A stretch of 50,638 bases of DNA from a virus (Duplodnaviria; Caudoviricetes). The translations under genes were made by a program, and so were the position numbers. Below the pieces are notes generated by a model. The model made no database searches. It saw only the letters and a program-made list of their open reading frames with translations, and was not told the origin of the DNA. Shown here piece after piece: positions 3,201 to 26,816 of this stretch (position 1 is the stretch's first letter; each line of letters opens with the position of its first letter). Location of the stretch: positions 1-50,638 of the IMG/VR virus record IMGVR_UViG_3300045922_000571; one strand, 5' to 3'.

Positions 3201-3694
3201 TCTACGAAATCAGAGACGATGGCGGCGCCCGGGAGACCATCCAGGCGGACTCGATCGAAGAGGCCCTCGAACTCGCGCGCGAGTGGGCGGCCGAGGGCTC
3301 CTACGATCAGCGCGTGATGGTCACTGTGTGGGTGACCGAATTCGACGAGAACGAGGAGCCCACCGGACGCACCGAGACCATCGAGGTCGAGGCCGGGCCG
3401 GAGCCGCGCCCGCCCCGCACCGCCTGCGGAGAGGAAGACGAAGACCACCAGTGGGCCGCGCCGCAGAAAGTGGTAGGCGGCCTCGACTCCAACCCCGGCG
3501 TGTTCGGCCTCGGCGGCACGGCGCTGCTGATCCGCCGCGTGTGCGGCCGGTGCGGCATCTACCGCATCGAGCGGCGGCCGGGATCGCAGCGCCGACCCGG
3601 CGAACTCGACGTCGAGATCTCCTACGAGCCAGCAGACGAGATCTCGCTCGCCTGGGTGCGGTCGCAGACCTGGGAGGACGACCACGATGCATGA
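3197..3694 (+). CDS. Acidic hypothetical protein with C...H...CxxC
   Basis: The likely true start is MIYEIRDD at 3197, after AGGAGG, within ORF 2975..3694. Confidence 0.7.
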   Translation: MIYEIRDDGGARETIQADSIEEALELAREWAAEGSYDQRVMVTVWVTEFDENEEPTGRTETIEVEAGPEPRPPRTACGEEDEDHQWAAPQKVVGGLDSNPGVFGLGGTALLIRRVCGRCGIYRIERRPGSQRRPGELDVEISYEPADEISLAWVRSQTWEDDHDA

Positions 3695-4094
3695 GCACGA
3701 ACGCATTCGCTCGGCCCCGTGTGGCTGTCTCTACGACGTGGTGACAGGCTTAGGCGTCCAGCTGTGCGCGGAGCATCGCCCCACCCCCCCAACCCGACGC
3801 CGCGCTGTGAGATGGGCGGACTTTCTGGCCTACGCTCCCCTCGGGGAGCGTAGGCCGATCTGGGGCACGCACGGCGCCGAAGCCGAGATCCTCGACCGTG
3901 TGTGGCACGGCCAAGGCGCCGGACAGATCGGCGATCGCGGCGTCACGACCGTGACCGTGCTCTGGCCGCGCGATCGCGTAATCCAGCGGTGGCGCCGCCG
4001 GCAAGGCTACGTCGTTCCCCGGCGCGATGGCTCGTGGGGCTGGGGCCAGACCCGCTGGGAGCTGATCGATGAGCGGAAGGAGAGCAACCGATGA
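3687..4094 (+). CDS. Hypothetical protein
   Basis: Operon-coupled ORF with an N-terminal PCGC...LC motif. Confidence 0.6.
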   Translation: MHEHERIRSAPCGCLYDVVTGLGVQLCAEHRPTPPTRRRAVRWADFLAYAPLGERRPIWGTHGAEAEILDRVWHGQGAGQIGDRGVTTVTVLWPRDRVIQRWRRRQGYVVPRRDGSWGWGQTRWELIDERKESNR

Positions 4095-11387: not shown

Positions 11388-14300
11388 CTACTGCGGGCCT
11401 TCGACCAGCCGCTGGACGACTGGCCCGAGCGGCGCATGGCGGTAGGCGAGCCGCTTCCAGGCCTCAGCATCTCCAGGCTGCGTCAGGACGGTCTGCATCA
11501 CATCGGCGGCCATGCCAGCCGACGGCCCGAAGACGAATTCGAGCGGCTTGCGGCGCTCGGCGGACTCGATCATGTCCCAGACGATGCCGAGCGAACCCAC
11601 CGCTGCTGCGTCCTCGAGCCAGCGCCGCAGGCCTTCCGCATCGCGCTCCCGGCCCGTGATCAGGTTGCGTAGCGCCAGGATTGCCTCTCCGGTCAGCGGG
11701 AACAGCACCGAAAGGATGAACAGGTTCCGGAAGGCGCGGCCGAACTCGCCGCGGCGAGCCTCTTCGACGAGGCTCCTGTAGAGCAAGCGGGTTTGGCCGT
11801 AAATGAACGTCTTGAACTGGAAGAAGACCTTGCCCCAGTTCGTCGACGCCCATGCGGGGTGGTCTTGCGGCCGCGAGCGGAACTGCGTCAGGTCCGAGAA
11901 CCGCTTGGCCGCCATCAAGACCTCGTCGGCGGTGAGGCGCCGCCGCGCCAGAGCAGCATCCGGGTCGATGCCCAGCTCAAGCAGCGCCCGGCGCGCCCGC
12001 GCGTTCCGCGGGTTGCGCACCAGTTTCGCCAGCAGGCGCTCGGCGTACACAGCGCCCACATTGGCCGCCACAATCCGGTTCGCGCGTTCCGTCGCCGAAA
12101 AGCCGACAGCCTTGAGATAGCGCTCAAAGGCGCGCACCGAGCCGGCCAGTTCGCGGATCGGCTCGTGGAGCACAGGGTCGATCGTTGCGCCCGACTCGAC
12201 GGCGAGGCGCCGCCCCGGCTTGCCCAGCGCGGCCCGGATGCCCATCGCGAGCGCTGGAAAATCCGCGGCGAGCAGGCTGTTGAGCACGCCCTGAGTAGCG
12301 TTCGGGATCGCCGCCAGCCCGAGCTTCGCGGTTTGCAGGGCGCGCAGCCAGCGGCTGGCGCGCTCCATGTTCGAGTCGGCAGCGTTCGCCTGCCCGAGGA
12401 TGCGCCGCACCGCCTGATCGACCCAGTCCGCATTGCCGCCAGCGTCGGCGATGCGCCGGATGAGGCGCGCAACGACCTGGTTGTCCTGCCCCAGCTCCGC
12501 GATCTGCGCCAAGCGGATCGAAGCGCTCGCCACGTGCGTCGGCAGCACGCGCGCCGGGTCGGGGTCGTAGAACGGCAAGTCGATCTCGCGCGCGTATTCG
12601 AGCGAGCCGTGGCGGTGCATCTGCGCCCGGAACCGCAGTAGCTTCTGTAGCGCCTCATCGCGCGAGCGGGCCTGTCTGGTGCGCATCAGATACTCGATCA
12701 GCTTTTGCCGGCGTCCGCCCGTCTCGATGAAAGCGATGTACTCGTCCAGCAGCAGACTTGCGTGCTTAGCGTCCGGCTCGACCTTGAGGCGCACCAGATT
12801 CTCGATGACGTCGCGGCGCACCGGGCCGCTCCGCAAGGCGTCGATGTGACGGATCACGTGCGGGTAGTAGTCGCTCCGCCGGGCGAATAGCCGCCGCTGG
12901 CCCTCGGTGTTGCGGACGAGCACCTCCAGGTCTTCGGCTTCGTCCGCCAGCTCGTCGGTGATTTGCCGGATGACGCGGTAAGCCTGTTGGACCTGGTCGT
13001 CCATCGCATCGTCGCGGCCCTCGAGCACGTCGAGCAGGTTCCAGCGCTGCTCTCTGCTGAGCTGCGCCAAGCCCGAGTCGCCGAGGCGCAGCAGGCGCTT
13101 TCCGGCGGAGACTTCGCCCCAATCGTTTGCGCGGCGCAAGGCGTCCATCAGCGCCTTGCCGGCGCCGCCGCCCTGGCGCTCCAGGCGGACGTCGAGCGGC
13201 AGGAAGACCTCTTCGAGGAGCGCCGCAACGGCGCTGCGCCGTGCCCGGGCGCCTACTTCGCTCCGGATGCCGCGCGCCAGGCGCTGCGCATGCTCGGCGA
13301 GTGCGGTGAGCGCCTCGATCTCGATGCGGGACTGCCCCGAAGTGTCTCGCCACAGGCGCTTGGCCTCAAAGTACAGCCGCACCAACTGCCGCCGCACCGC
13401 CTCTCCGAAGCGCGCCAGCATCCGCTTGGACCACTCCGAGAACTTGACGATGCCGTCGCGGATGAGCTGCGCGCCGAACAGCAGGAAGTCCACAGTCGCC
13501 GCGCCACGCTCCCCGCCTTCCATGCCGCTTTCCGGTTCGGTTTCCATCCCCCGGCTCAGCTCGGCGGGGAATTCCTCGAGGATGCGCTTGAGGACTTGGA
13601 AGCCTTCGTCGTTGCTCGTGATGTAGTAGATCGGCACGACACCGCGCTCGTAGCGCACGCCGAGTTCGCGGAGCCGTCCGGTGTAGGCGCCAGGGTGGAC
13701 CTGGATCACCGTATTGCGTGCGACGCGCCCTCTGGTCAGGCGCACGCCGTTGGCGAGCTGATAGGGCGTGCCGTTGGAGAGCACGTCGTTCCAGACCTGC
13801 TGGGGTGTGATGCTGCGGCCCTGGGAGATCGCGGCGATCAGGTTCTGGAGCTGCGTCGGGTAGACTTCGACGCCGACGATGCGTTCGCCGCTTTCGCTGT
13901 CCTGGACGGCGTAAATGCCTCTGACGCCGGCGTCCTGAATGCGGCCCCACCAGCGCAGCACAGTGCCGCCGAGCAGGTCATGGCGCTCCGGCCGGAATTC
14001 GGGGATCGATTCGTAGGCCTTCTGCCAGAAGATTCTGGCGGCCTGCTCGCCCTCGGCGCCCTCGAACTGCTCAAGCTTGGCCTTCGCGATCGCCTCTTTC
14101 TCGCGGGCCCGTTCGATTTTGTCCTCGTAGTAAGCCTTGTCGAGCCGATCAACCGCGTCAGCCTTTTGCCGTTCGTACCGCTCGATGGTCTCTTTGTAGA
14201 ACGACAGTTCGGACTTCAGGTCATTGAGGTACTGAGCCAAGCTCTTGCGGTAAAAGCTCGCCTGTGGGACCTTGGTGCGCGCCCGGTCGGGGCGGACGAC

Positions 14301-17300
14301 ATAGTGCGCCGGTTCGACTCGTCCGTCGGCGTGCACGATATCGGGCGCGGGGAAAGCGTAGGCGATCTCATCGGGCTTGCCGCCCCGGCCCTCCGTGATG
14401 TAGAAATTCCCCTGTTTGGCGTGAGCCTGGATGATGGGCTGGAGCTGGTCGAACGAGATCCGCTCCGTTCGCACCTGCGTCTCGACGACGTAGTGGATGG
14501 TCTCTGCGCCCGTCTGATCGTCCACGGCAAGCACTTGCTTGCTGAGGATGCGCGGGCGCTCGCCGTGTAACTGCCGGACGCCCACATCGAGCGTCCCGTC
14601 TTCGATAGCCTTCTGTACGGCCTGTTCAAACAGGTCGTAGTAGATGTTGTAGGCCGTGTTTTGCACGTCCGGGTCGAGCGCGAGCAGACGGTTCAGCAGC
14701 CGGTTGACGTTGCGCCGGTCCTGGTCTTCGACATAGACCTGGCCGTCGCGCGTTCGCAGAACTCCCATCTGCGAGAGGACGTCGTGTCCGGTGAGTTCCG
14801 GCGCGATCAGCCGGTTGCGCAGCATGTAGGCGTAGAAAGCGTCTGCGGCCTGTTCGCCCTGGTCGGACTGGAAGTTCACCTTGGCGATGAGGTCGGCGTT
14901 GGCGCCGGCCGCTTCGCGGCTCCCCTTGGTGAGTGCGCCGAGCGAGCCGAGCCGGCGCGCGATGGTGGAGATGAACCGCTTTTCCCCGCCCAGGTCGGAA
15001 ACCACCATCAGGTACTCGGGAGCATGCGCCTGATTGGTGCGGTGCGTGCGGCCGAGCATCTGCATCGCCTTGTCGGCTTCCCAGCCGACTTGCAGCGTGA
15101 TATGCAGGCGCTTCTGGCGGTTCGGCTTGGTGTTGTCGGCATGCAGTGAGATGCCAGTCGAAGCGGCGTTGGAGATGATAGCGACGCGCTTCTTGCCTTC
15201 CTGGAAGGCGGCCGCTTCGGCGATGTTGACCTTCTGGCGCGCCATCCCCTTCTCGCCGCGCGGCACGAACTTGCCCGTTGCCGGGTCGTAGCGCTCTTTC
15301 CGTCCGGTCAGTTCGGCTACTTGCGCGGGACCTCCCAGCGCTTCGATCAGCTCATCGAGGGGATTCTTGGGAAGCGCCAGCTCCTGCCTGAGCTTCGCCA
15401 GCAGTTCATCGCGCAGGCGCTCGGCCTCCGGATTGATCACCGGATTGCCCGCTTCGTCTACGAGCGGCACGCGAACCGGCTTGCCGGTGGCCGGGTCGAG
15501 CTGGACCTCCCACTGCTGGACGGGGAAATGCTGCTGGATCAGGGTGATTAGGATATCCTTCGGCCCGAAATCCAGGTCGTCGCTCTCTTCCGTTCCCTCG
15601 CCTTCCTCTTCGGCGGCCTTGCGGCGGGCCTTCTCCCGCTCCTGCGCCGCCTCATTGGTGTTGATCAGCGAGATCACCACCGAGTAGCCCTGGGCCAGCG
15701 CCTGATGGGCGTGCTCGACAGCGGTCGGGATCTTCATGGCGGTCAGCAGCAGGTTGAAGAACCGCTGCTGCGCGCCAAAGAACTGGCTCATGAAGTTTGC
15801 CCGGCCGCGTGGGCCTGTTTCGGTAACCTGTAGCCCTTGCTCGACCCACTTCATGACCTCGCGCCAAGCCGCGGCTGCGTTGCGGTAGATCGCCTTCTGG
15901 TCTTCGTTGAGCGGATGGACGGCGTCTTCGCGCAGGACGACGCCCTTGTAGGAGATGGTGCGCGAGATGTAGCGGCCGCGGATCTTCAGCTCGCGCGCCA
16001 GCAGCTCCATTGCGCTCATGCCACCGCGCGAGAGCTGAAGCTGAAACTCGCTGAAGCCGTGCGGGAACGGAGTGCGCGGCCCCCATAGGCCCAGGCGCGA
16101 CAGGTAGCCCATATTCGACAGCTCGCTGGCGGCCGTGGCCGACAGGAATGTCGTGCGCGACCGCGGCACTTGCTCCAGCAGCTTTCTGACGGCCTTGCCG
16201 GTGTCAGAGGGCTGCTGCCGCCCGCTGGGGATGGCGTTCTTCAGGTTGTGCGACTCGTCGAACAGCACTACGGCGCCTTCGCCGTCGTCTTGGCCGCGCA
16301 CGTAGTCGATGATCTGGTCGATGCGCGCGCGCTCCTTGCGGTCGCGCGAGCGCAGGAACGAGTACGGGGCAAACAGAACGCCTTCGTGCTGGATGGGGAC
16401 CCCGTAGGGGAACTTGTCGGCGCGCTTGATGGTCGAAGCCAGGTAGCTGTGGCCGAGATCGTTCAGGTCGCGCTGCGCATCTTCGATCAGCCGCCAGTTG
16501 TCGCTGACCCAGATGATGCGCCGGCGGCCTTGATTCCAGTTGTCGAGGGCGATGCCGGCGATGATGCGCCCCTTGCCCACGCCCGTGCCGTCGCCAATCA
16601 GGGCCGCTGCGCGGCTGCCGTCAGGCAGGATCGTCTCGTTGGCCTGTCCGGCGAGCACAATCGCTTCCATCTGGGCGGAGGACAGCGCCCCGGAATCGAG
16701 CAGCTCCTGCGGCAGCGCGGGCTGGTACGTCAGTGGCGGCAGCTTGACGGTCGCCATCGCCTGCGTCTCGACCAGCACCCCTTTGTGCGGCGATCCCTGG
16801 ATGGAGGGCCGGTAGATGACGAACGCGCCTGCGTCCGGCTCCGGATCGACCGCCACCGGAGCCGGGATGATCTTGACCCGGTTCTCCGGGATCTCTTCCT
16901 CGGGCGGCGTCGGTTCGGCAGTGACGCCGTAGCGCGCCGCTACCTTCGCTGCGTAGCGGTGAATCTCGCGCAGGATCGAGGCGACAGTGCGCTTGGTCTC
17001 GGCGGCGAAGTGCTTGAGGATGTCCCCTGCCTCGGCGAGCATCCGCTCGCTCCAGGCCTGGAACTGCACTGCGCCTTTGACGATGTAGTTGGCGCCGATG
17101 GTCACGGCATCGATCAGGTCTTGCGGATCGATGCCGCTCTGGAGCTGCTGGCCGCGAATCTTGGCGCGCAGGCGCGCTGCGGCTTCTTGGGCAGCCTTGT
17201 CAAGCTTGCTGAGCGCCTCCGAACTCGCTTTGGGCTTAGCGCCCGGCTGCGTCTTGATCGGCGGCGGCTGCGTCACAAAACGCGGCGTCGCCGGCGCCGG

Positions 17301-20300
17301 AGACTTCTGAGAGGATTCCTCAGGGGCAAGCTCTCCGCCCAAGGCGCTCGTTGCGGCGTCGAGAAGATCGTCGATCGAAAGCCCAGAAGCTGCGGTCAGG
17401 TCGCTTCCGGGTTCAATGACTACAGGTCGGCTACGTCGGGGTTGGCGGCTCGGACGAGAGCTCGGAGGACGCTCGGCGGGTCCAGTTTCGGCCAGTGGTT
17501 GCCCGCTATGTTCAACTGGCTCATGTCCAGTTGGTTCGGCGTGTTGAACTCCTCCAGCTTGTTGACCAGCAGCTCCGCCGGCCAGCTCTCCATGGGGACC
17601 AAAAAGGCTTCCTTGATCGTCCAGACGGGGACGCCCAGCTCCTCCGCCAGTTGCTTGGTCTGCTCCGGATACTCCAGGTAGGCCAACCAGGCCAGGCGCA
17701 GCGCCGCCTCCTTGGCCAGCTTCGGATTCAGGCCGCCCAGGCGCTCCTTGGCTTGCTTGGTCAGTTCCACCTTGGGTTGCGGCCGCTCCGGGCGTGGCAC
17801 CTGGTCGAACTCCCGGCCGCGCTGCATCATCTGCGCCCAGAATTCGTCCCGGGAGGATTGCCCGGAGGGCTTCATAGGCCTCCTCAACCGAGTTATAACT
17901 CCCCTGGGCGACGTTGGCAAGCTGTTGCGCCAAGGTAGCGCCAGGGGTGGGACCCGTCTTGTCGATGACGATCACCTGCACCGGCATCGAGGTGCCGTAC
18001 TTGGCGTACTCTTTGCCGCTGAGCCGGACATTCGCCAGGACGTTGTAGTGGCCGACTGTGCGCTCCCAGTAATGGCGCGCTCCGGGAGCGTTGATTCCGG
18101 CGCCTTCGACGCGCTCGAAGCCCGAGCGCCCGCCAGTGAGCAGCGCGACGAGCCGCCCGCCCGGCTGGAGGCGCTGCAGCGCCTGATCGAGATGCATGAA
18201 ACCGTAGCGCAGGTTCTTGAGCGCCCCGCCTGCGGCGCGCGTAAACGGCGGGTTCATGACGATCAGCGTCGGCCGCACGTCGCGCTCGAGCAGCGCGTTC
18301 AGCACCTCGGCGTTGTGGCGCGTCGCTTTGGGCAGGCCGATCGCTTCCGCCAGCTCGGCGCGCTGCGGATCGATTTCGTTGAGGTGCGTGCGCGCCACCA
18401 GCGGCTCGAGCAATGCGGCGAGGCCTCCGACGCCGGCGGAAGGCTCGAGAAGCACGTCGTCCGGGCGCGGCTCAGCGAGCTTGGCGACCAGCAGCGCGAT
18501 GGTCGGTGGCGTCGAGAACTGCTGTAGGTCGATCTGCTCCTGATTGCGCACCGTCTCGGTGGCGAGGCGGCTGAGGACGCCGCGGAGTTCGCGTGCGGCC
18601 TCATCGAAAGGCATCTGGATGAGCCTGCTGGCGTGGTCGCGCAGCCAGGAATTGACGGCGGCCTCCTGCGCCTCGTAGAGATCGCGCATCTCGAAGGCGC
18701 CTGCGGCGCGCGTTCCGCCGAAGATCTCCTCACCGATGCGCTCCAGCCGCAGGCGAATGTCTTCGGCCGACTCGATCGCCTCGCGGATGCGCCGCACCAG
18801 CCGGAGCAGCGCATCCTTCCGGCTGAGCGGCCCGGCCGCTTCAGGCTCGCGCCGAGCGCGGCGCGCGGCATCGGCCAGATGCCTGAGGTCGGGCTCTTGC
18901 GCCGCCATTCTCTCGATGGCTGCGTCGAGATCCCCGGTCTGGACGTAGGCCTGCTGTAGGCCGATCAGCCAAGCGAGAGCTTGCTGGTGATCTTCGTTGC
19001 TGCCGTACCAGTGCAGCTCTCCCTTCAAGTCGACAGCGCCAACGGCGCGCGCCAGGGCGCGCACGACGGGGTGCTGGCTGTCCAGGCGCTCGAGATCGAC
19101 CCACTGGTAGCCGGTCTCGCGCTCGAACTCCTGGACGCTCGGCCAGACGCGCTCGCCCGTGGGAATGCCATTGAACTCTTCGGTGGCGATTACGCGATCC
19201 CCATCGCGCTTCACAGTCCAGTAGTGCGGCTCTCCGGTCTGTGGATCGGTTCCGAGCTGGATTTGCGCGCCCTCCCAGGCTCGCTTCGGGGCCCCAGCGG
19301 CGAGGCCAGCGCCGCCCGCGGCCGGCGGGGCAGGCGCCGGCGCGGGTTGCGGCGCGGGTTGCGGCGCGGGAGTGTCGATGACCTCTGTGATCTTCAAGGC
19401 GCGCGACATCCGCTCAATGGCGCGGCGGTTCTTTTCGGTGTTGTCGACCAGCCACGCCTTGCGGTTCGGGTCCCACTTGGCTCCGGACAGCTTGGCGATC
19501 ATGCGCCGCCAGCGGTAGGTGTCGCCAGTGACGGCGATCTTTTCCGCCTTGGGCGGCGCAGCGGGAGGTTGGGGCGCGGGCGCAGGCGCGGGAGCAGGCG
19601 CGGGAGCAGGCGCAGGCGCAGGCGCGGCTTCGGATTCGAGCGGTTCCAGGTCGCTGTCGGCGGTCTTCCCCTGCCGGATCGCTTCGGGCGACTGGAAGGA
19701 ATCGACCCGAATCACCCAGCGCGGATCGCTCGGGCGCGGGCGCAGCTCTTCGAGCGATCCAACGCCGCTCAGCCGCCACCCATCGCCGCTGTCGATGATC
19801 GAGTAGTGCGTCAGCTCGGGGTGGCGCTGGCGGTATTCGGCAAGCGTCTCGGCGTAGCCCTGGCGCAGCGTCGGCTTGATGTAGCGCTCGAAGCCGTATT
19901 CGTTGAGCGGGAGGATTTTTTGGCGGGTGCCGAATGCCTGCCCCCCCTCTTTGTTGCGCATCCACTGGTAGAGTTCCACGCCCTCTCGAGGCGGAGCTGA
20001 CGGCGGCGGAGGCGGCGCGGCAGCCTGTTCAGCGGACTCTTCCGGCGGCAGGACCTGCTCGCGGAGTTTCTGGTACTCGCGCTCGAAAACCGGCGCATAC
20101 TCCTGCACCCACTCGGGATCGGTCGATCGGTAGGGACGCCACCAGCCGTCTTCAGTGCGCGTTGCGTACGTGTCACGAGGCACGCCGAAGACTGTCGACC
20201 AGCCAAGCACCCTGGCGTAGAGCTTGTTGCGATCCGCCGGATTCGGCGCTGCCGGGCCGATTACTTCGATGGTTATTACGTAGTCAGAGTCATCGAGACG

Positions 20301-23300
20301 GAACGGATCGCCTTGGACGGTCTGGGGCCACTTCAGGCGGATCTTGCCCCCCTCCGGCGGCGGTTCCGGAGGCAAGACGTGCTCCAGAAGCTTCTGGTAC
20401 TCGCGCTCGAAGGCCTCAGCGACGCCCGCGATAAATTGCGGGCTGGTACGCCCGGCGGGATGCCAGCCGCCTTCGGGCGAACGCGTGGCGATTTGGTCGC
20501 CGGGAGCGCCGCCCGACCAGAAGTTGGCCGTTCCGTAGAGCTTGCCGCGGTTGGCCGGGTTGGGCGCCTGAGGGCCTATGACCCCAACGCGCACAACGTA
20601 GTTGAATTCGCCGACACGGAACGGTGGGCTTTCTAAGCTCTTGCCGTGGTCGAGGCGGATCTTGCCCCCCTCCGGCGGAGGCGGCTCGTAGGCTTCTTCC
20701 TCCGGGGCAGGGGGCGCTTGCGGAGGCTCTTGCGGGCGCAAGCCGCTGGCCGGTTGCTGGACCTGGCCCAGTTGCGGGCGGAAAGCTTGCGGCTCGACGT
20801 GCACGATTTCGCCGGCGGCCTGCTGCGGCGTCGGCGGTGCTCCGGGCACGGTCTCAGCCATAGGTAGCGCCAGCTCCGGCGCTTGCGGGCGCAAGCCGCT
20901 GGCGGGTTGCTGGACCTGGCCCGGTTGCGGCCGGAAAGCTTGCGGCTCGACGCGCGCGGCTTCGCCGGCCGCCTGCTGCGGCCCTAGCGGCGTCTGGACA
21001 AATCCAGCGCGGCCAGGAGCTGGAGTTTCCGTAAGCCGTCCAAGCCACTGCTCGGCGCGCTCGGCGATGCGCTCGTAGGAGGCGCGGCGCTCCTCCCAGT
21101 TCACGCTTCCGGGCTGGACTTTGGCGGCCTGCGCGCGCGTCCGATCGCGCAAGTCCTCGAGGATTTCCCGCGCCGTCACAGGGCGGTTCTGGGAGCGGAT
21201 CACCGGGCCGGCGATCGCAGCGAACTTGTCGACCATGCGCACCGCGATCGCGATGTCATCATCGGAAGTCCCTGGGGTGGCCAGCAGGCGGACGAGCTGT
21301 CCCGACCACCGCCCGTGAGCGCCGGTTGCGGCGCCCATCGGGTACTTCGCCGTGGCATATTCCAGATCTTCGTACTCGGCCTCCTGCTCTAAAGCGCTCT
21401 TGGGCGGCGCGGCCGGAGCTTCCGGAGGAGCTGCCGGAGCTTCCGGCGGGGCGAACAGATCCAGTTGCGGCGTTGCCGCTTTCGGGCCGCGCTGTCGCGG
21501 CCGCGCGGGAGCAGAGGCAGGCGGAGCCTGCTCACCCTCGGGGCCTTCCACGAAATGGACTGGCGGGCCGAGCAACACGTACCGCTTGCCCCGGTAGGAC
21601 GGCTTGACGCCGTGGTAATAGCCGAGCGGGTCACGCAGATCGTACTTCGGGCTTCCTTGGAACTCCTCAGCCGGACGCAGCCGATAGGCTTCGTGGTAGC
21701 CCTCCCCGGGCACGTCGCTGCGCGAAATGGATACCGTCACCCATTGCTCGCCATTCCAGTTGAACGGCCGCCTGATCCGCGGGTTTTTCTTGCTGCTGAG
21801 CAGGTCCCCGGAGTAGGCGTCCCAGATGTCGCCACCGGCGTTGAGGCGGGCGGGAGCGACTCGGATGCGCTCCGGCTCCTGGATCTGCTCGGCAGCGGCG
21901 GAGGCCTCCGCCGCTGGAGCGGCTTGGGGCTGCTCTGAGGCGCTCCGGATCGCCTCGCGCCGCTTCCAGAGACGCTTGGCCGACTCCGTCTGCGCTGGGG
22001 CGGGGATGACGCGCGCAGGCGCGCCGATGCGGGCCGAGTGGGCCTGCTCGGCGGCGTCGTACATCGCATTGGCGATGCCGCGCCCGCGGTAGGACGGGAC
22101 GACCGCCACGTGCAGCGGCACCAGCTCGGAGGCCTCCGGCGTGCGCCCGGAGATGGCGCCGAACTTCGGCCCCTCGGCCAAGCGGGCGTAGCCGACCACG
22201 TTCTCCGGCTTGAGTCCGCGCTGGGCGAGCTGCTCGCGCCACGCTTTGCTGCCAGTGATGCCGTCGAGGTGGTAGTCGGCCAGATAGCCGGTGATGGCAT
22301 CCTGTTCGCGGCCCAGGCTGGCTTTCGGATGGGCTGCGATGACTACGTAGCCCTCGGGGCTGGGGAGAGTGACGATCTGGCCGCCGGAAGCGGCAAAGTC
22401 ATCCTCTGCCGGGCGGGCCAAGCTGGGGTCGAACAGCAGGTAACTCGTTGCCCGCTTGCCCGTGTCGCCATGCCACTCGTTGATCTTGGCGCTGTCGTAG
22501 CCAGCCTTGCGCAGCGCCTTGGCAAGCTCCTCGCCGGCGAAGTCTCCGAAGTACTGGAGAAGCTCCGCGCCATCGGGTTCGGCAAAGCGCAGCCGCTTGT
22601 CCAGCTCGGCGCTCACCTCGACGCCGTTCTCTTCAAGGAAGCTGCGTAAGGTTTCCGGCTGGACAAATTCGTCGGCTTCGAAGCGGCTCGAAAGGTCCAG
22701 CGTGCGCTTCGGCGAAATCAACAGCCGCTGCGTGTAGTCGCCGAACGCCTTGCTGTAGTCCCGGTCTTCGGTCACGTACAGCACGCCCTTGTCGTTGAGC
22801 GCAATTGGGGCATTCGGGGTGCGCGAGGACCGGAAGACTTCGATCTCAGGCGCAGCGGCGCGCACCGGCTGCTGAGCGCGGAGGCCGCTCGCAGGCCGCC
22901 GAATTTCCGGAGGCCGGGTCAGGAACACGGGCGCGCCGCGCTGGGGCTGTTGCTGCCCGCCTGCCGGAGGAGCCGGAACCGGCGCCGGACCCGCCGCGGG
23001 CGGCGGCTGAATTTGCGGCAACGCAAGCCCTCCAGGCTGCCGGATCGCTGGAGGGGCAGTGATGAACCTCGGGGTGCGGCCGGCAGGGCTGGCAGGCTCC
23101 GCAGCGGGTCTGGGAGGGGTTTTGACGAAGCCCGCCATCGGCGGCGGCTGCGGCTCCGGGCGCTCGGCTTGCTGAGGCGCAGGCGGGGCAGACGGGGGAG
23201 TCGGCGCGGCTTGCTGGGGAGCAGGGGGGGCAGCCGGGGCGGCTGGGGAGGCAATCCCCTGCGGAATGATCCGCTGAGCGCTGCCAGGGCCGGCTACCGC

Positions 23301-26300
23301 ATCGACAGCGCGTGCGATCAGCTCGAGCTTGCCGGGTACCGTGACCTGGCCGAACAGGTTGGCCTGGTCGGGATGGCCGAAGGCGCGCACCTGATCGGCA
23401 TAGGCGCGCAGGATCTCGGCAAGCTGGCGCGGACTGTTGCCATACTGGTCAAAGACACGCAGCCATGCCTCGCCTTCGGGCGCTAGATCGCGCCCGAACA
23501 TAGGCTGCTGGAGCAGATAATCCTCAACCGTTTGGGAACGGGAGCGCAAGTAGGCGAGCTTGCGCGCCGCCGCAGCAATGTCGCGCGCCGCCGAGAGCGG
23601 CTGGAGCGCTCCAGCCTGAATGTCGGCTTCGAGCCGCGCCATCTGCGGCGCTGCCCGCAGCAGGCCGTCTGTGATGCGCCGCGCGGTGTCGTCACGCGCC
23701 TCGGCCATGCGCTCGACGCCGGAGACGTCGCCGCCATAGGCAGCGGCAAAGATCGCGTTGCGCAGCCTGCGCTCGCCGTCCTGATTGAGCTGGCCGTCGC
23801 GGTCCATGTAGGCGCCGCGCTCGGCGGGCGGCACCGCGAGGTCAAAGAACTGCCGGATGAACTCGGCGTTGGCCTGCGTGCCGATGTCGCCGCTCTCCGA
23901 CGGCTGGAAAGTAGCGAGCAGGTCCGGCGTGAGCTTCTTGGCGTCGCTGGCGGCCAGCTCCGCCGGGCTGCGGCGCGCCACGGTCTCTGCATTGGACTCG
24001 TCAGCGAACCGGCCAAGAGCCACCTTGCCGACGAGCACGCGGCGCAGAGACGGCATCTTCATGGCATCGACCGCCGCCGGGTCGAGGCCGACCTGAGGCG
24101 CAAGCCGCTTCAAGTAGTCGCGGTAGGCGGCGGCGCGCTGCGGATAGAGTTCGTACATCAGGCGCTGGGCCAGCGTCCGGCCATTGCCGGAGATGGTCAC
24201 CATGCGCCCGTCCGGGAGCACGACGTCGATGGGAGCGCCTTGGCTGGCGAGGCGGCTCGGCCCGGCCTGCTCCGGATCGAAGTTGCGCGCCAGATCCTCG
24301 ATCTGGGCGCGCGAAGCCGTCCGAGCGCGTTGGCGGCCCTGGTACTGCTGCGGGTAGAGGGGGTTTTCGTTGCCGGTGAGGTCGTGGGAGACGACGACCG
24401 GATCTTCGGCTAAGTCAGCGAGCACCCACTGCGCTTGCGCGGGAGTGCCTTGCGGAGTGACGACCTCTTCGACTTTGCCGCGGCGGCCTTCCGGGAGCGC
24501 CGAGGCCTCCGGAGCCTCATACTCGGTCTCTCCTTGCGCCTGGCTGCCCACCGCCACGGTCGTCAACGGCGGCGGCGCGTGGCCGATGAATTTGCCTTCC
24601 GAGTCGAGTTTTTGATCGCGGATCAGCTCGGCCATGATCCGCGCTGCCGTGTCCCGGTCTACGCCCAGTGCGTTCTGGATGCCGATGCGCCGGATGCGCC
24701 CCTCGCGCTGGGCAATGGCGAGCGCTTCGCTTTTGAGCTGCTCAATGTCCTGCGGCGCTCCGGGCGCACCGGGGGCTTGCGCGGTGGGAGCCGTTGCGCC
24801 GGGCTGGCCGCCTGGAGGCGTTTCGGGCCCCATCGAGGGCAGTTGGCCCGCGATGCTGTAGTACTTCCGTCCGTTGCGATCCTCGACGGCGACGGCGCCC
24901 TGGTCGTAAAGCTCGTCGAGGATCTCCCGAGTCAGGCGCGGAGAGATCGCCAGCTCGTCGAGGATCTCTTGCCGGGTAACGGGCCGGCTCTTGCTCCGGA
25001 GGTAGTCGAGGATCTGCTGGGTCTGTTTGGAGAGATCGACTGCGGGACCAGGCGGCGCTGTGGGAGGGGTTCCTGGGCGAGCCGCTGGCGCGCCTGCGCC
25101 TTCCGGCAGTTCCGCTTGGCTGCGCTCGCGCGCCGCCTCGTGCGCCCGCCGGAGGATCGGCTCGCCAATTAGCACAGATGCGCCCGCGCCGATGGTGGAT
25201 TCGAGCAAGCCTTCGTCGAGCGGGCGGCCCGAAGCGTAGTTGGAGGCGATCTGCTGGGAGTTCTCCTGCGCCACCTCCATGGCCGCATCCCAGAGGATGC
25301 GCTTGACGGTGCTCGCCGCGCGCGGGTCGTACAGGCCCAGGGCGTTGAACAGGACCGTCGGCCCGGCGGAATACAGCGCCGACTTGCGCGCGATCTCGGC
25401 CGCCTCTTCGGGCGTTTTGCCCTGCTTGGCCGCCTCGGCGGCGTCCATGCCCGCCTGGGAGATGGTTTCCAGAGCGCTGCCGGTAGCGAGCATTCCGGCA
25501 GCGTTGGCGATCTGAGCGGCGCGGCCAGTGATGCCAGCGAGGCGCACCAGCCGGTCGACCACTGCGCCCGTACCGGCGGCCGAGCCGGCAAAGCCTGCCA
25601 TCGAACCCATCGCGCTTCCGGTGACGCGCGCCCACCACTCCGGCGCCCAAGTCTCCGGCTCGCCTTGGGGTTGATAGAAGAAGTTCTCCAGCGTCTCGCC
25701 AGTCGCCGCGATCGCGTTGCCGATCGAGCGCATCACCGGCGAGTCCTGGCTCTGGCTGGCGATGAACTGCCCAAGGCCGGTGCCCAGCCCGATAGCGCCT
25801 TTGACGAACGAACCCAGAAACTCTGATCCGACCTTGCCCAGGCGGCCGGGCAGCGGAGCGTTCTCGGCGCTGTAGAGCGCCTGCTCGGGCTTGGTGCCCA
25901 GCAGGTCGAGCGGAACCGGCTCGATCGGCGCGCGGGCTTGCGGCACGCCCGGAAGCTGGCCGCCGAGGCGCTCGGTGCCGGGGATCGGGCCTTGGGCGTA
26001 GCGCTGGAGATTCTCCTCATAGAGCCTGCGGCCCAGCTCGAATTGCTTGGCAGCCTGGTCGAGCGCCTGGACCTCGGCCTCCAGCGCCGAACGGCCCGCC
26101 TCGAACTCGTTCATGCGCTGCTGGTAGCCCTCGACCAGCGGCTGGACGATTTTCGGCCCCGAGCGGCCGAGCAAAGCCGACAGCCGCCCGACTTCGACCG
26201 GCGCTAACTCCAGCTCCGAGCGGCGCTGGTGAAGATCCTTCGACAGCGCTTCGATGCGCGCCCGGCGGGCATCGATATCCGCCGCCAGACGCTCAAGCTG

Positions 26301-26816
26301 CTCGCGGCTGGGAATCGGAGTGTACTGATCCAGGAAGGCGTCCAGATCGTCGAGCGATGCGGCGCCGTTGCCGGTTCCATTGCCGTTGCCGTTGCTGGCT
26401 CCGTTGCCGCTCGGCCCGCCGGAGCCGTTACGGTGCTTTTCGACCAGCGTCAAGGCGCGCTCGACGTCGCGCTCGGTCGCCCCGCCCGCTTCGACGCCCT
26501 TATAGGCCCGGAAGGCTTGCGCGACATCGCCGCCGTGGCGGTTGATGAGCTGGCTCAGATAGCGGACACCACCCTCGATGTTCTGGTCGAGATCCTCGCG
26601 GTCGATGCCGAGCTGGCGCGCCGTGCGCTCGGTGAACTGGAAGACGCCGCGCGCCCCGGTGGGAGAGGTAGCCGACTGGCGAAAGTCGGATTCGCTCTCG
26701 GCCAGCCCGAGAGCAATGGCCGGGTCGACGCCGTATTTGTTGGCGGCGCTACGGATTTTTCCGATGATCGCTTGGGAGTCGAACTGGTCGAGGAAGGCGT
26801 CGAGTTCGTCACGCAT
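11388..26816 (-). CDS. Giant 5142-aa polyvalent virion/ejection protein (DarB-like)
   Basis: N-terminal SLT (AANKYGVDP...ESESDF...SPTGARGVFQF...NIEGGVRYL). DdrB/ParB-like region (QGRQR...GAP...SGNGRT). GNAT (VAVVPSYRGRGIANAMY). N6-MTase (QQFSTP, LEPSAGVGGL, MNPPF). Strawberry-notch helicase (GDGTGVGKG, DESH, SAT, ELTGRK, QMLGRTHRTNQ). It sits in the P22 gp16-like position after the other ejection genes. Confidence 0.92.
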   Translation of the reverse strand: MRDELDAFLDQFDSQAIIGKIRSAANKYGVDPAIALGLAESESDFRQSATSPTGARGVFQFTERTARQLGIDREDLDQNIEGGVRYLSQLINRHGGDVAQAFRAYKGVEAGGATERDVERALTLVEKHRNGSGGPSGNGASNGNGNGTGNGAASLDDLDAFLDQYTPIPSREQLERLAADIDARRARIEALSKDLHQRRSELELAPVEVGRLSALLGRSGPKIVQPLVEGYQQRMNEFEAGRSALEAEVQALDQAAKQFELGRRLYEENLQRYAQGPIPGTERLGGQLPGVPQARAPIEPVPLDLLGTKPEQALYSAENAPLPGRLGKVGSEFLGSFVKGAIGLGTGLGQFIASQSQDSPVMRSIGNAIAATGETLENFFYQPQGEPETWAPEWWARVTGSAMGSMAGFAGSAAGTGAVVDRLVRLAGITGRAAQIANAAGMLATGSALETISQAGMDAAEAAKQGKTPEEAAEIARKSALYSAGPTVLFNALGLYDPRAASTVKRILWDAAMEVAQENSQQIASNYASGRPLDEGLLESTIGAGASVLIGEPILRRAHEAARERSQAELPEGAGAPAARPGTPPTAPPGPAVDLSKQTQQILDYLRSKSRPVTRQEILDELAISPRLTREILDELYDQGAVAVEDRNGRKYYSIAGQLPSMGPETPPGGQPGATAPTAQAPGAPGAPQDIEQLKSEALAIAQREGRIRRIGIQNALGVDRDTAARIMAELIRDQKLDSEGKFIGHAPPPLTTVAVGSQAQGETEYEAPEASALPEGRRGKVEEVVTPQGTPAQAQWVLADLAEDPVVVSHDLTGNENPLYPQQYQGRQRARTASRAQIEDLARNFDPEQAGPSRLASQGAPIDVVLPDGRMVTISGNGRTLAQRLMYELYPQRAAAYRDYLKRLAPQVGLDPAAVDAMKMPSLRRVLVGKVALGRFADESNAETVARRSPAELAASDAKKLTPDLLATFQPSESGDIGTQANAEFIRQFFDLAVPPAERGAYMDRDGQLNQDGERRLRNAIFAAAYGGDVSGVERMAEARDDTARRITDGLLRAAPQMARLEADIQAGALQPLSAARDIAAAARKLAYLRSRSQTVEDYLLQQPMFGRDLAPEGEAWLRVFDQYGNSPRQLAEILRAYADQVRAFGHPDQANLFGQVTVPGKLELIARAVDAVAGPGSAQRIIPQGIASPAAPAAPPAPQQAAPTPPSAPPAPQQAERPEPQPPPMAGFVKTPPRPAAEPASPAGRTPRFITAPPAIRQPGGLALPQIQPPPAAGPAPVPAPPAGGQQQPQRGAPVFLTRPPEIRRPASGLRAQQPVRAAAPEIEVFRSSRTPNAPIALNDKGVLYVTEDRDYSKAFGDYTQRLLISPKRTLDLSSRFEADEFVQPETLRSFLEENGVEVSAELDKRLRFAEPDGAELLQYFGDFAGEELAKALRKAGYDSAKINEWHGDTGKRATSYLLFDPSLARPAEDDFAASGGQIVTLPSPEGYVVIAAHPKASLGREQDAITGYLADYHLDGITGSKAWREQLAQRGLKPENVVGYARLAEGPKFGAISGRTPEASELVPLHVAVVPSYRGRGIANAMYDAAEQAHSARIGAPARVIPAPAQTESAKRLWKRREAIRSASEQPQAAPAAEASAAAEQIQEPERIRVAPARLNAGGDIWDAYSGDLLSSKKNPRIRRPFNWNGEQWVTVSISRSDVPGEGYHEAYRLRPAEEFQGSPKYDLRDPLGYYHGVKPSYRGKRYVLLGPPVHFVEGPEGEQAPPASAPARPRQRGPKAATPQLDLFAPPEAPAAPPEAPAAPPKSALEQEAEYEDLEYATAKYPMGAATGAHGRWSGQLVRLLATPGTSDDDIAIAVRMVDKFAAIAGPVIRSQNRPVTAREILEDLRDRTRAQAAKVQPGSVNWEERRASYERIAERAEQWLGRLTETPAPGRAGFVQTPLGPQQAAGEAARVEPQAFRPQPGQVQQPASGLRPQAPELALPMAETVPGAPPTPQQAAGEIVHVEPQAFRPQLGQVQQPASGLRPQEPPQAPPAPEEEAYEPPPPEGGKIRLDHGKSLESPPFRVGEFNYVVRVGVIGPQAPNPANRGKLYGTANFWSGGAPGDQIATRSPEGGWHPAGRTSPQFIAGVAEAFEREYQKLLEHVLPPEPPPEGGKIRLKWPQTVQGDPFRLDDSDYVITIEVIGPAAPNPADRNKLYARVLGWSTVFGVPRDTYATRTEDGWWRPYRSTDPEWVQEYAPVFEREYQKLREQVLPPEESAEQAAAPPPPPSAPPREGVELYQWMRNKEGGQAFGTRQKILPLNEYGFERYIKPTLRQGYAETLAEYRQRHPELTHYSIIDSGDGWRLSGVGSLEELRPRPSDPRWVIRVDSFQSPEAIRQGKTADSDLEPLESEAAPAPAPAPAPAPAPAPAPQPPAAPPKAEKIAVTGDTYRWRRMIAKLSGAKWDPNRKAWLVDNTEKNRRAIERMSRALKITEVIDTPAPQPAPQPAPAPAPPAAGGAGLAAGAPKRAWEGAQIQLGTDPQTGEPHYWTVKRDGDRVIATEEFNGIPTGERVWPSVQEFERETGYQWVDLERLDSQHPVVRALARAVGAVDLKGELHWYGSNEDHQQALAWLIGLQQAYVQTGDLDAAIERMAAQEPDLRHLADAARRARREPEAAGPLSRKDALLRLVRRIREAIESAEDIRLRLERIGEEIFGGTRAAGAFEMRDLYEAQEAAVNSWLRDHASRLIQMPFDEAARELRGVLSRLATETVRNQEQIDLQQFSTPPTIALLVAKLAEPRPDDVLLEPSAGVGGLAALLEPLVARTHLNEIDPQRAELAEAIGLPKATRHNAEVLNALLERDVRPTLIVMNPPFTRAAGGALKNLRYGFMHLDQALQRLQPGGRLVALLTGGRSGFERVEGAGINAPGARHYWERTVGHYNVLANVRLSGKEYAKYGTSMPVQVIVIDKTGPTPGATLAQQLANVAQGSYNSVEEAYEALRAILPGRILGADDAARPGVRPGATPGAAATQGGTDQASQGAPGRPESEAGQGGGAAPGLVGLPGVSGADQATGGGAGRPRLDDQGSLFGPHGELAGGAAGQQAGGVQHAEPTGHEPVEHSGQPLAETGPAERPPSSRPSRQPRRSRPVVIEPGSDLTAASGLSIDDLLDAATSALGGELAPEESSQKSPAPATPRFVTQPPPIKTQPGAKPKASSEALSKLDKAAQEAAARLRAKIRGQQLQSGIDPQDLIDAVTIGANYIVKGAVQFQAWSERMLAEAGDILKHFAAETKRTVASILREIHRYAAKVAARYGVTAEPTPPEEEIPENRVKIIPAPVAVDPEPDAGAFVIYRPSIQGSPHKGVLVETQAMATVKLPPLTYQPALPQELLDSGALSSAQMEAIVLAGQANETILPDGSRAAALIGDGTGVGKGRIIAGIALDNWNQGRRRIIWVSDNWRLIEDAQRDLNDLGHSYLASTIKRADKFPYGVPIQHEGVLFAPYSFLRSRDRKERARIDQIIDYVRGQDDGEGAVVLFDESHNLKNAIPSGRQQPSDTGKAVRKLLEQVPRSRTTFLSATAASELSNMGYLSRLGLWGPRTPFPHGFSEFQLQLSRGGMSAMELLARELKIRGRYISRTISYKGVVLREDAVHPLNEDQKAIYRNAAAAWREVMKWVEQGLQVTETGPRGRANFMSQFFGAQQRFFNLLLTAMKIPTAVEHAHQALAQGYSVVISLINTNEAAQEREKARRKAAEEEGEGTEESDDLDFGPKDILITLIQQHFPVQQWEVQLDPATGKPVRVPLVDEAGNPVINPEAERLRDELLAKLRQELALPKNPLDELIEALGGPAQVAELTGRKERYDPATGKFVPRGEKGMARQKVNIAEAAAFQEGKKRVAIISNAASTGISLHADNTKPNRQKRLHITLQVGWEADKAMQMLGRTHRTNQAHAPEYLMVVSDLGGEKRFISTIARRLGSLGALTKGSREAAGANADLIAKVNFQSDQGEQAADAFYAYMLRNRLIAPELTGHDVLSQMGVLRTRDGQVYVEDQDRRNVNRLLNRLLALDPDVQNTAYNIYYDLFEQAVQKAIEDGTLDVGVRQLHGERPRILSKQVLAVDDQTGAETIHYVVETQVRTERISFDQLQPIIQAHAKQGNFYITEGRGGKPDEIAYAFPAPDIVHADGRVEPAHYVVRPDRARTKVPQASFYRKSLAQYLNDLKSELSFYKETIERYERQKADAVDRLDKAYYEDKIERAREKEAIAKAKLEQFEGAEGEQAARIFWQKAYESIPEFRPERHDLLGGTVLRWWGRIQDAGVRGIYAVQDSESGERIVGVEVYPTQLQNLIAAISQGRSITPQQVWNDVLSNGTPYQLANGVRLTRGRVARNTVIQVHPGAYTGRLRELGVRYERGVVPIYYITSNDEGFQVLKRILEEFPAELSRGMETEPESGMEGGERGAATVDFLLFGAQLIRDGIVKFSEWSKRMLARFGEAVRRQLVRLYFEAKRLWRDTSGQSRIEIEALTALAEHAQRLARGIRSEVGARARRSAVAALLEEVFLPLDVRLERQGGGAGKALMDALRRANDWGEVSAGKRLLRLGDSGLAQLSREQRWNLLDVLEGRDDAMDDQVQQAYRVIRQITDELADEAEDLEVLVRNTEGQRRLFARRSDYYPHVIRHIDALRSGPVRRDVIENLVRLKVEPDAKHASLLLDEYIAFIETGGRRQKLIEYLMRTRQARSRDEALQKLLRFRAQMHRHGSLEYAREIDLPFYDPDPARVLPTHVASASIRLAQIAELGQDNQVVARLIRRIADAGGNADWVDQAVRRILGQANAADSNMERASRWLRALQTAKLGLAAIPNATQGVLNSLLAADFPALAMGIRAALGKPGRRLAVESGATIDPVLHEPIRELAGSVRAFERYLKAVGFSATERANRIVAANVGAVYAERLLAKLVRNPRNARARRALLELGIDPDAALARRRLTADEVLMAAKRFSDLTQFRSRPQDHPAWASTNWGKVFFQFKTFIYGQTRLLYRSLVEEARRGEFGRAFRNLFILSVLFPLTGEAILALRNLITGRERDAEGLRRWLEDAAAVGSLGIVWDMIESAERRKPLEFVFGPSAGMAADVMQTVLTQPGDAEAWKRLAYRHAPLGPVVQRLVEGPQ
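17420..17875 (-). CDS. Nested overprinted gene (151 aa) in an alternative frame inside the giant ORF
   Basis: GAGGAGG lies just upstream of ATG 17875. Codons end mostly in G/C and the sequence looks globular (KLAKEAALRLAWLAYLEYPEQTKQLAEELGVPVWTIKEAFL), while the host frame here is a G/A/P/Q-rich linker with many A/T-ending codons. Confidence 0.72.
   Translation of the reverse strand: MKPSGQSSRDEFWAQMMQRGREFDQVPRPERPQPKVELTKQAKERLGGLNPKLAKEAALRLAWLAYLEYPEQTKQLAEELGVPVWTIKEAFLVPMESWPAELLVNKLEEFNTPNQLDMSQLNIAGNHWPKLDPPSVLRALVRAANPDVADL
20040..20680 (-). repeat. Tandem duplicated domain of about 105 aa within the giant protein
   Basis: PPPEGGKIRL...PFR...Y...VIGP.APNPA.R.KLY...W...D..ATR...G.W...FEREYQKL.E.VLPPE occurs twice. 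Confidence 0.85.
20729..20980 (-). repeat. Near-identical direct repeat of about 100 bp within a linker of the giant ORF
   Basis: QQAAGE...VEPQAFRPQ(P/L)GQVQQPASGLRPQ twice, at about 20729-20827 and 20883-20980. Confidence 0.85.

Follow-up and report, generated by a model that had tools for sequence, protein, structure and literature searches.

Genes that lie inside other genes are known from several systems. The Rz/Rz1 spanin of phage lambda includes a gene placed wholly within another one, on the same strand and in the +1 frame; it has its own start, one mRNA serves both genes, and the two products cooperate. Overprinting in small viruses, exemplified by genes B in A and E in D of phiX174, leaves two frames under selection, and in its classical form the new frame has an odd codon usage. 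According to the part of 10.1101/520783 considered here, comS in srfAB of Bacillus subtilis and rpmH within rnpA of Thermus are the only two earlier bacterial examples of out-of-frame internal initiation. The part of PMC5512222 considered here describes the "dyad" of a methyltransferase (MTase) and a SWI2/SNF2 protein found in polyvalent proteins, including DarB of phage P1. Here we describe a 151-codon open reading frame (ORF), referred to as X, that lies between the MTase and helicase domains of a giant polyvalent protein encoded by a virus of the Caudoviricetes (Duplodnaviria). The window, meaning the whole stretch of DNA analysed, is the complete IMG/VR virus record IMGVR_UViG_3300045922_000571 (50,638 bp, with direct terminal repeats). 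X is very probably a real, separately initiated protein-coding gene, overprinted on the MTase-helicase linker of this phage polyvalent protein.

X lies wholly inside the giant ORF, on the same strand and in a different frame (Table 1). A first-pass annotation, made from the DNA letters, had reported this ORF and placed it between the MTase and the helicase; its coordinates and its location were both confirmed. The ATG of X is found 2 nucleotides (nt) past the final residue of the MTase C-terminal alignment, and the helicase domain of the strawberry-notch (Sno) type, AAA_34, begins about 210 residues beyond the X stop codon. The same annotation had described the codons of X as genome-typical and mostly G/C-ending, and the giant frame over the same bases as an open linker with odd codons, and the measurements agreed with both descriptions. 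The guanine plus cytosine (GC) content at codon positions 1/2/3 was 0.68/0.39/0.88 in the X frame, 0.73/0.49/0.81 in the whole giant ORF and 0.88/0.68/0.40 in the giant frame across the X bases, where no stop codon was present. This compositional switch between frames had its onset near 17900 and its end near 17420. With a codon log-odds score trained on the remainder of the giant ORF, the X frame reached +0.32 per codon, compared with a mean of 0.313 (standard deviation 0.076, minimum 0.086) for the true frame in 93 other segments of the giant ORF. The +1 frame elsewhere in the giant ORF averaged -0.61, with a maximum of -0.27, and the giant frame over X scored -0.29, below all other segments. 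It is the nested frame, and not the giant frame, that carries the coding signature, and the window has no second place where the +1 frame outscores the main frame.

By itself, the length of X is ordinary in a genome of 66-69% GC. Elsewhere in the giant ORF, +1 stop-free stretches reach 256 codons, and 43% of the +1 codons lie in stretches of at least 100 codons; the case for X is therefore built on its codon signature and its conservation, not on its length. Long alternative-frame ORFs being common in the window, X might be taken for a chance open frame in GC-rich DNA, or for an assembly artefact. However, its codon log-odds score lies 6 standard deviations above the +1-frame background, it has a homologue in the databases (P0003, see below), the feature recurs across a family of loci and independent contigs are identical, and we regard chance or artefact as scarcely credible. 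Two Logan contigs, of 50,541 nt (run X1) and 8,750 nt (run X2), showed no differences and no gaps over positions 16000-19300; the runs compared were four runs of one sample, which is possibly the source of the record and is not an independent population. These identical, gap-free assemblies exclude an assembly slip at X, and with it the compensating sequence errors that the first-pass annotation had named as a way in which this frame could prove to be the true frame of the giant protein. In a low-depth 270-nt contig (run X5, window 17676-17945), three single-nucleotide differences were observed, at 17799, 17852 and 17910, which are too few to weigh. Among those inside X, one was synonymous and one changed V to A, indicating that a variant strain was present. 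A promoter scan of positions 17200-18300 gave no sites, and a terminator scan of the same region gave one terminator-like site, which equals the chance expectation.

To place X among its relatives, 40 viral and 32 genome loci were fetched with the alignment of the MTase C-terminus (A2); individual loci are cited by number (L). A nested ORF was defined as a +1 ORF of at least 95 codons starting no more than 50 nt from the MTase end, and three viral loci ending at the locus edge were set aside. Such an ORF was present in 36 of the 37 evaluable viral loci, the exception being L051, and in 8 of the 32 genome loci. L057 also scored positive and was discounted as having a frameshifted helicase; it was the only locus in which MTase and helicase, where both were found, did not share a single ORF. 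The 23 genome loci without a nested ORF were mostly chromosomal genes of Acidobacteriota, in which MTase and helicase abut; the others were four loci with a linker of 63-67 aa, L073, and L080 (no helicase found). In L073, the linker is about 180-209 aa long, with just 31 open +1 codons. Stops in this frame of homologous giant genes, which the first-pass annotation had listed as evidence that would speak against X, were absent from nearly all evaluable loci with a linker (exceptions: L051, L073 and the loci with linkers of 63-67 aa).

The nested ORFs of the relatives comprise about 100-155 codons and begin at the same place after the MTase domain. As in the window, the codon score flips to the +1 frame right after the MTase, for 330-540 nt, in 29 of the 66 loci analysed. 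The GC content of the family ranges from 0.41 to 0.70, and loci of low GC with a nested ORF include L029 (0.41) and L040 (0.43). Among three plasmids examined, two carry the nested ORF, that of Methylotuvimicrobium alcaliphilum 20Z (NC_016108; locus L086, ORF at about 3374-3718) and that of T. mobilis (NC_019941), both of which are conjugative plasmids of cultured bacteria; in both, the ORF is unannotated, in line with the earlier expectation that gene callers would miss it. The third, pSWIT01, has an ordinary linker and lacks the nested ORF. In some other relatives, the +1 frame also scored above the main frame (L014, 11071-11370; L015, 3664-3963; L021, 4960-5319; L045, 7081-7800; L054, 8560-8949); these places may be more nested genes or merely odd linkers.

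The nested start codon was ATG in 42 of 45 loci. Its offset from the residue equivalent to giant aa 2980 was +2 in 24 loci, including the window, and +5 in 8. Moreover, the core of a Shine-Dalgarno (SD) sequence was found 7-15 nt upstream of the start in 29 of the 45 loci, compared with 5.5 expected from other positions of the same ORFs. The MTase domain of the window terminates in the helix SVEEAYEAL, whose codons provide both the SD sequence and the ATG of X. Across the loci, the ATG is created where two main-frame codons meet as xAT-Gxx (mostly R-[ND]-[DEA]; for the window, Y-E), and the upstream GGAGG is supplied by main-frame L-E-G or E-E-A codons. The nested stop sits in a main-frame G-L-[TKN]-V-E or P-V-x context (P-V-V-I-E in the window), and straight after it the main frame regains its normal composition. 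Judged from these signals, the nested ORF possesses its own start codon and ribosome-binding site. The possibility that the helicase half is initiated separately, beyond the nested stop, was considered and rejected, the giant frame having no SD-preceded start codon there.

The first-pass annotation had also raised the possibility of programmed frameshifting, in which a +1 shift at the end of the MTase would yield a helicase-less product, running from the N-terminus through the MTase into X, and the nested ATG would be unused. The +1 relation of the frames and the position of X directly after a domain boundary suit such an MTase-X product, and in the window no +1 stop interrupts the 15 codons between 17920 and the ATG. 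However, in eight relatives (L017, L020, L023, L024, L028, L030, L036 and L040), a +1 stop codon occurs 3-9 nt upstream of the nested start, which is ATG except for a GTG in L024 (the assignment in L020 being uncertain). With these stops in place, ribosomes could not shift out of the giant frame ahead of the start, so that entry in those relatives would have to fall at or after the start codon. The codons that follow the start vary (AAC, CCC, ATC, GCC and others) and have no slippery sequence in common, and a CCCGGGA run in the window (17852-17846) would give a -1 shift and not +1. Frameshifting would, moreover, require neither the conserved ATG nor the enriched SD core. No programmed +1 frameshift site was recognized, and we consider this explanation improbable. 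Given the conserved start and SD sequence, the upstream stops in eight loci and the lack of a slippery motif, internal initiation fits best.

The bases shared by the two frames bear marks of selection on each of them. Main-frame stops were absent from the overlap in all 44 of the loci tested. When the synonymous codons of the nested protein were redrawn from the usage of each locus, 4-14 stops were predicted in loci with a GC of 0.60 or less, and the probability of an open giant frame was 0.001 or lower in 16 loci. Across loci, the giant frame over the nested gene is kept open by selection, though its sequence is a by-product of the nested codons. Because nested codon position 3 is giant codon position 1, the giant-frame linker is rich in Gly, Ala, Pro and Arg; the giant-frame translations of the nested stretches were G/R/P/E-rich and, by inspection and without formal alignment, showed no evident common motifs. 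The first-pass annotation had pointed to QGSLF (17601-17615) as a motif kept in the giant frame; this motif lies within the compositionally abnormal linker, and the codon logic of P0003 would bar a conserved Q and S, so this suggestion does not seem to hold.

Close pairs of loci were compared at the three codon positions. In the overlap, differences at nested positions 1/2/3 numbered 14/11/21 for L035/L039 and 24/25/40 for L033/L037, and in the MTase flank, differences at main-frame positions 1/2/3 numbered 24/13/115 and 45/38/75, respectively. Differences in the overlap were more frequent at nested position 3 than at the other two positions, and main-frame position 3 changed at about 0.1 per codon, compared with 0.4 in the MTase flank. 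Main-frame third positions are strongly constrained within the overlap, which is a classic mark of an overlapping gene. As for the nested protein, its conservation among relatives was seen in P0003, in the equivalent ORFs and in the fold predicted from 24 sequences, and the persistence of its motifs over a GC range of 0.41-0.70 places this conservation at the protein level. Nested proteins are nonetheless faster-evolving, with a mean column identity of 26%, versus 52% for the MTase and 51% for the helicase of the same loci. With a conserved nested protein and a giant frame that is stop-free against expectation, both frames are under selection, as had been proposed.

A phmmer search with X against 1,835,955,588 cluster representatives of all lengths gave a sole match, P0003 (156 aa; E 4.8e-31), which is 47% identical to X over X residues 6-148. 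On its 909-nt Logan contig, P0003 was predicted as a separate protein that has a start of its own; had its frame run on from a giant protein, the call would have been about 300 aa long. Its N-terminus, MPSE..., forces the overlapping frame to x-A-[LFIV], which agrees with the conserved ...[DEN]-A-[LV] of the last MTase helix; P0003 is therefore likely to be nested at an MTase end, as X is. Other searches gave no relatives of X: peptide patterns for X and P0003 in IMG/VR, a DNA pattern for EFNTPxQLDxSxLN in viral contigs, an alignment search with X in JGI metagenomes, tblastn with X, two family-I proteins and the MTase end in GenBank phages, and tblastn and hmmsearch with X and P0003 against 74 related loci. 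Ten JGI metagenome loci matching EFNTPxQLD were all rejected as chance matches, one of them (L009) being a luciferase-like oxidoreductase. Six short database proteins (P0004-P0009) begin within the MTase domain and end a few dozen residues beyond it, on contigs of up to 37 kb; they resemble fragmentary gene calls on relatives, and their tails after ...EEAW.AL... are wholly divergent.

A coding signature in the nested and not the giant frame is also what a mis-framed segment would look like. X could then be a domain of the giant protein, entered and left by two compensating shifts (ribosomal, or real or erroneous indels), and the giant-frame linker would never be made. The evidence argues strongly against this arrangement: independent assemblies contain no indels, and the pattern recurs in about 45 divergent loci, in each of which the nested frame ends in a stop codon. 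The last sense codons before that stop vary and offer no common site for a shift back, a stop-free giant frame would be pointless if unread, and the phmmer search found the X sequence in frame inside a long protein in none of the 1.84 billion representatives. We therefore hold compensating shifts to be very unlikely.

The +1 translations have motifs in common, N..PLN.AAK..L....PDP..LY.LQL..WGLE.G ... PEDAAELLIENL. An AlphaFold model based on an alignment of 24 of these products (family I) had a predicted local distance difference test (pLDDT) value of 88.8 and a predicted template modelling (pTM) score of 0.84, with seven helices. No Pfam or PHROG family matched X or any of the 24 family-I relatives. 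Foldseek searches of the family-I model against PDB and BFVD gave no match at E 0.001 or below, the best E value being about 1, and in the ESM Atlas the best score was 0.75, without a lead. The helix-turn-helix-like stretch that the first-pass annotation had seen in X found no counterpart: helix-turn-helix families gave no match, nor did the searches with the family-I fold. The nested proteins are mostly acidic, with a median isoelectric point of 4.86 (25 of 34 below 5.5), that of X being 5.55. A family-I profile matched 12 proteins in a collection of 5.8 billion clusters, all unnamed or "hypothetical" and 11 of them from contigs shorter than 4 kb. Between the larger subfamilies, I and II, hhalign gave an E value of 0.0018. 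X and these larger subfamilies have in common the frame, the start offset, the stop context, the size and the helical character; sequence homology between them is not established.

The nested frame looks older by its codon usage, and MTase-helicase fusions without a nested ORF exist (the Acidobacteriota loci, pSWIT01 and P1 darB). Both observations would suit a relic, namely a formerly independent small gene, or a previous frame, that came to be read through at the fusion of MTase and helicase and that no longer yields a protein. Stops would be expected to build up in a relic, and its start to decay; the ORF, however, has persisted together with its ATG and its protein over a GC range of 0.41-0.70 at 20-30% protein identity, and covariation in the alignment is sufficient for a confident fold. 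A relic is thus a very doubtful explanation.

Several points weigh against reading X as an expressed nested gene. Its translation and initiation are predicted from sequence, and the loci are not independent of each other, L037/L038 and L048/L049 being near-identical. The SD sequence and the ATG lie within the codons of a conserved MTase helix, so that their conservation may be partly driven by the main frame, and in the window the SD core ends just 3 nt before the ATG, which is short. The open giant frame of the window is weakly unexpected, with P 0.019 by the synonymous redraw and 0.26 under a permutation null, the latter being more conservative as it retains the already biased codon set. X itself was modelled poorly by AlphaFold (pLDDT 41, from 2 sequences), too low for a fold search, and hhalign between X/P0003 (A1) and subfamily II (A5) or subfamily I (A3) gave E values of 0.11 and 0.10, respectively, with short co-linear matches. 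Finally, the nesting of P0003 is predicted from its N-terminus.

Taken as a nested gene, X would be expressed by ribosomes that start internally at the nested SD-ATG, with the SD sequence supplied by main-frame E-E-A or L-E-G codons and the ATG by the xAT-Gxx codon pair. This would yield a helical and mostly acidic protein of about 12-17 kDa, free of the giant chain. For ribosomes in the giant frame, these bases would encode a disordered, flexible tether joining two enzyme domains; as that frame is kept open, the full-length fusion must be produced as well. As to its role, which is more speculative, the small gene most likely serves the MTase-helicase pair, being inseparable from it by recombination and on the same mRNA. 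Its product might act as a chaperone in assembly or packaging, or might hold the enzymes in check in the producer cell; alternatively, it might be a counter-defence factor in its own right, delivered along with this module. The first-pass annotation had suggested that it may be an inhibitor, chaperone or regulator of the enzymes. The fixed linkage, the shared mRNA and the fast evolution would be consistent with a partner or regulator of the dyad or with a counter-defence factor. Co-folding of a family-I nested protein with the MTase domain and the helicase N-domain scored 0.15 against a mark of 0.32, which speaks neither for nor against binding.

More broadly, X appears to be a real, previously uncatalogued nested gene in a linker that truly codes in two frames, and it is conserved in one clade of polyvalent proteins from phages and plasmids. 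We also put forward, tentatively and with somewhat less than even confidence, that it belongs to an uncatalogued class of hidden genes. In this class, the MTase/strawberry-notch tether of many phages and conjugative plasmids would be dual-coding, and its +1 frame would encode a fast-evolving, mostly acidic helical protein of new fold. That protein would complete the anti-restriction dyad as its obligatory third member (a chaperone for packaging or secretion, a donor-cell brake on the enzymes or a counter-defence effector), locked by the overlap against rampant domain shuffling. Bacteria and their elements very rarely carry long and conserved nested genes on the same strand; the family described here seems to count dozens of them at a single fixed site, in phages as well as in conjugative plasmids from cultured bacteria. 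Gene callers skip the nested gene whenever the giant ORF is intact, and Pfam and PHROGs have no family for it. The MTase-helicase dyad is a main counter-restriction module of mobile elements, and an unseen third protein tied to it would, if true, change the study of DarB-like systems. For evolution, the locus would offer a clean case in which a large protein cedes linker sequence to a small gene and retains only its open frame.

Table 1. Position of the nested gene X and of the surrounding features of the giant ORF in the window.
Feature	Positions	Strand	Details
Nested gene X, 151 aa, +1 frame of giant ORF	17420..17875	minus	ATG 17875-17873, TAG 17422-17420
Shine-Dalgarno-like GAGGAGG	17879..17885	minus	3 nt before X ATG; main-frame codons V-E-E-A
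X bases in giant frame (aa 2981-3132)	17421..17876	minus	G/A/P/R/Q-rich linker, abnormal codon usage, stop-free
Giant ORF	11388..26816	minus	5,142 aa, polyvalent protein, Pfam/PHROG matches
MTase domain, final ~330 residues (giant aa 2651-2980), with MNPPF	17877..18866	minus	PHROG MTase matches, MTase alignments A2 and A6
Helicase N-terminal NTPase domain (Pfam AAA_34, strawberry-notch type), giant aa 3343-3645	15882..16790	minus	E 2.5e-95
Helicase C-terminal domain (Pfam Helicase_C_4), giant aa 3818-4081	14574..15365	minus	E 6.2e-82

The giant protein is characterized, in order, by SLT transglycosylase, ddrB-ParB, GNAT, adenine MTase and Sno-type SWI2/SNF2 helicase domains, followed by a long C-terminal part. 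Its adenine MTase has, besides the MNPPF motif, PHROG MTase and DarB-like matches, and the host gene of X encodes a polyvalent protein with an MTase-SWI2/SNF2 dyad of the DarB type. Genes for the portal, the major head protein, head closure and DNA-ejection / internal virion proteins lie on the same strand, upstream of the giant ORF. Since adjacent genes match DNA-ejection / internal-virion-protein PHROGs, the giant protein is probably carried in the virion and ejected with the DNA.

Other features of the giant protein and of the window were also observed. In its Pro-rich interdomain stretches, an [RGV]F[VIL]xxPP motif recurs as GFVKTPP, RFITAPP, VFLTRPP, GFVQTPL and RFVTQPP (23112-23132, 23049-23069, 22908-22928, 20985-21005 and 17262-17282, respectively, minus strand), and may be a processing or docking site. 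A module of about 106 aa, EGGKIRL...FEREYQKL, is duplicated in tandem (giant aa 2049-2143 and 2155-2251), and VEPQAFRPQ.GQVQQPASGLRPQ is present twice, directly before this module; together, these repeats occupy window positions ~20064-20672 and 20772-20951 (minus strand). The sequence QLDLF (21453-21467, minus strand), within a Pro/Ala-rich linker, resembles the beta-clamp-binding consensus. A WS[EK]RML helix occurs twice on the minus strand, at 17037-17054 (...F..WSERMLAEAG...) and at 13416-13433 (...FSEWSKRMLARFG...), which points to a helical module present in two copies, one following the linker and the other close to the C-terminal part. Positions 1-2000 of the window, adjoining the terminal repeat, have a GC of 0.77, compared with 0.61-0.72 elsewhere, and an Rfam scan of the whole window gave no matches.

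In the main text of PMC5512222, the words "overlapping", "frameshift", "linker" and "low-complexity" are absent. Among the matches listed for literature on polyvalent proteins, DarB, antirestriction or strawberry notch together with overlapping or out-of-frame genes, nothing relevant appeared.

Compared with DarB and the dyad, the giant protein likewise joins an EcoKI/TaqI-like adenine MTase that contains NPPF to a downstream SWI2/SNF2-type ATPase. It also includes SLT and ddrB-ParB domains, and its delivery probably accompanies that of the DNA; unlike that of DarB, its helicase is of the strawberry-notch type. P1 darB (L089, P1 10469-17236) has a 177-codon +1 open stretch between MTase and helicase, without a coding signature; it has no nested gene, and its main frame between these domains resembles ordinary protein. 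In P1 ddrB (L089 24542-27529), an internal gene on the opposite strand, iddB, is annotated. With lambda Rz/Rz1, X has in common its same-strand +1 nesting and its own start; however, the host frame here is a disordered tether in a 5,142-aa multi-enzyme protein, with no folded partner domain, and the nested product is predicted to be soluble, helical and mostly acidic, and not a lipoprotein. Like comS in srfAB, X is a small ORF, internally started and out of frame, inside a very large multi-domain gene. The comS gene, in contrast, comprises 46 codons and regulates competence, unrelated to its host enzyme, whereas the nested gene described here has 100-155 codons, is conserved across host phyla, phages and plasmids, and occupies a domain linker in which host-frame sequence has been sacrificed. 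As in phiX174, two frames are selected and synonymous change in the host frame is depressed. Unlike in classical overprinting, it is the small nested frame that has a normal codon usage, and the giant frame that is compositionally derived. A same-strand, out-of-frame nested gene is thus of a known kind, but this family, its fixed site and its sacrificed host linker are new.

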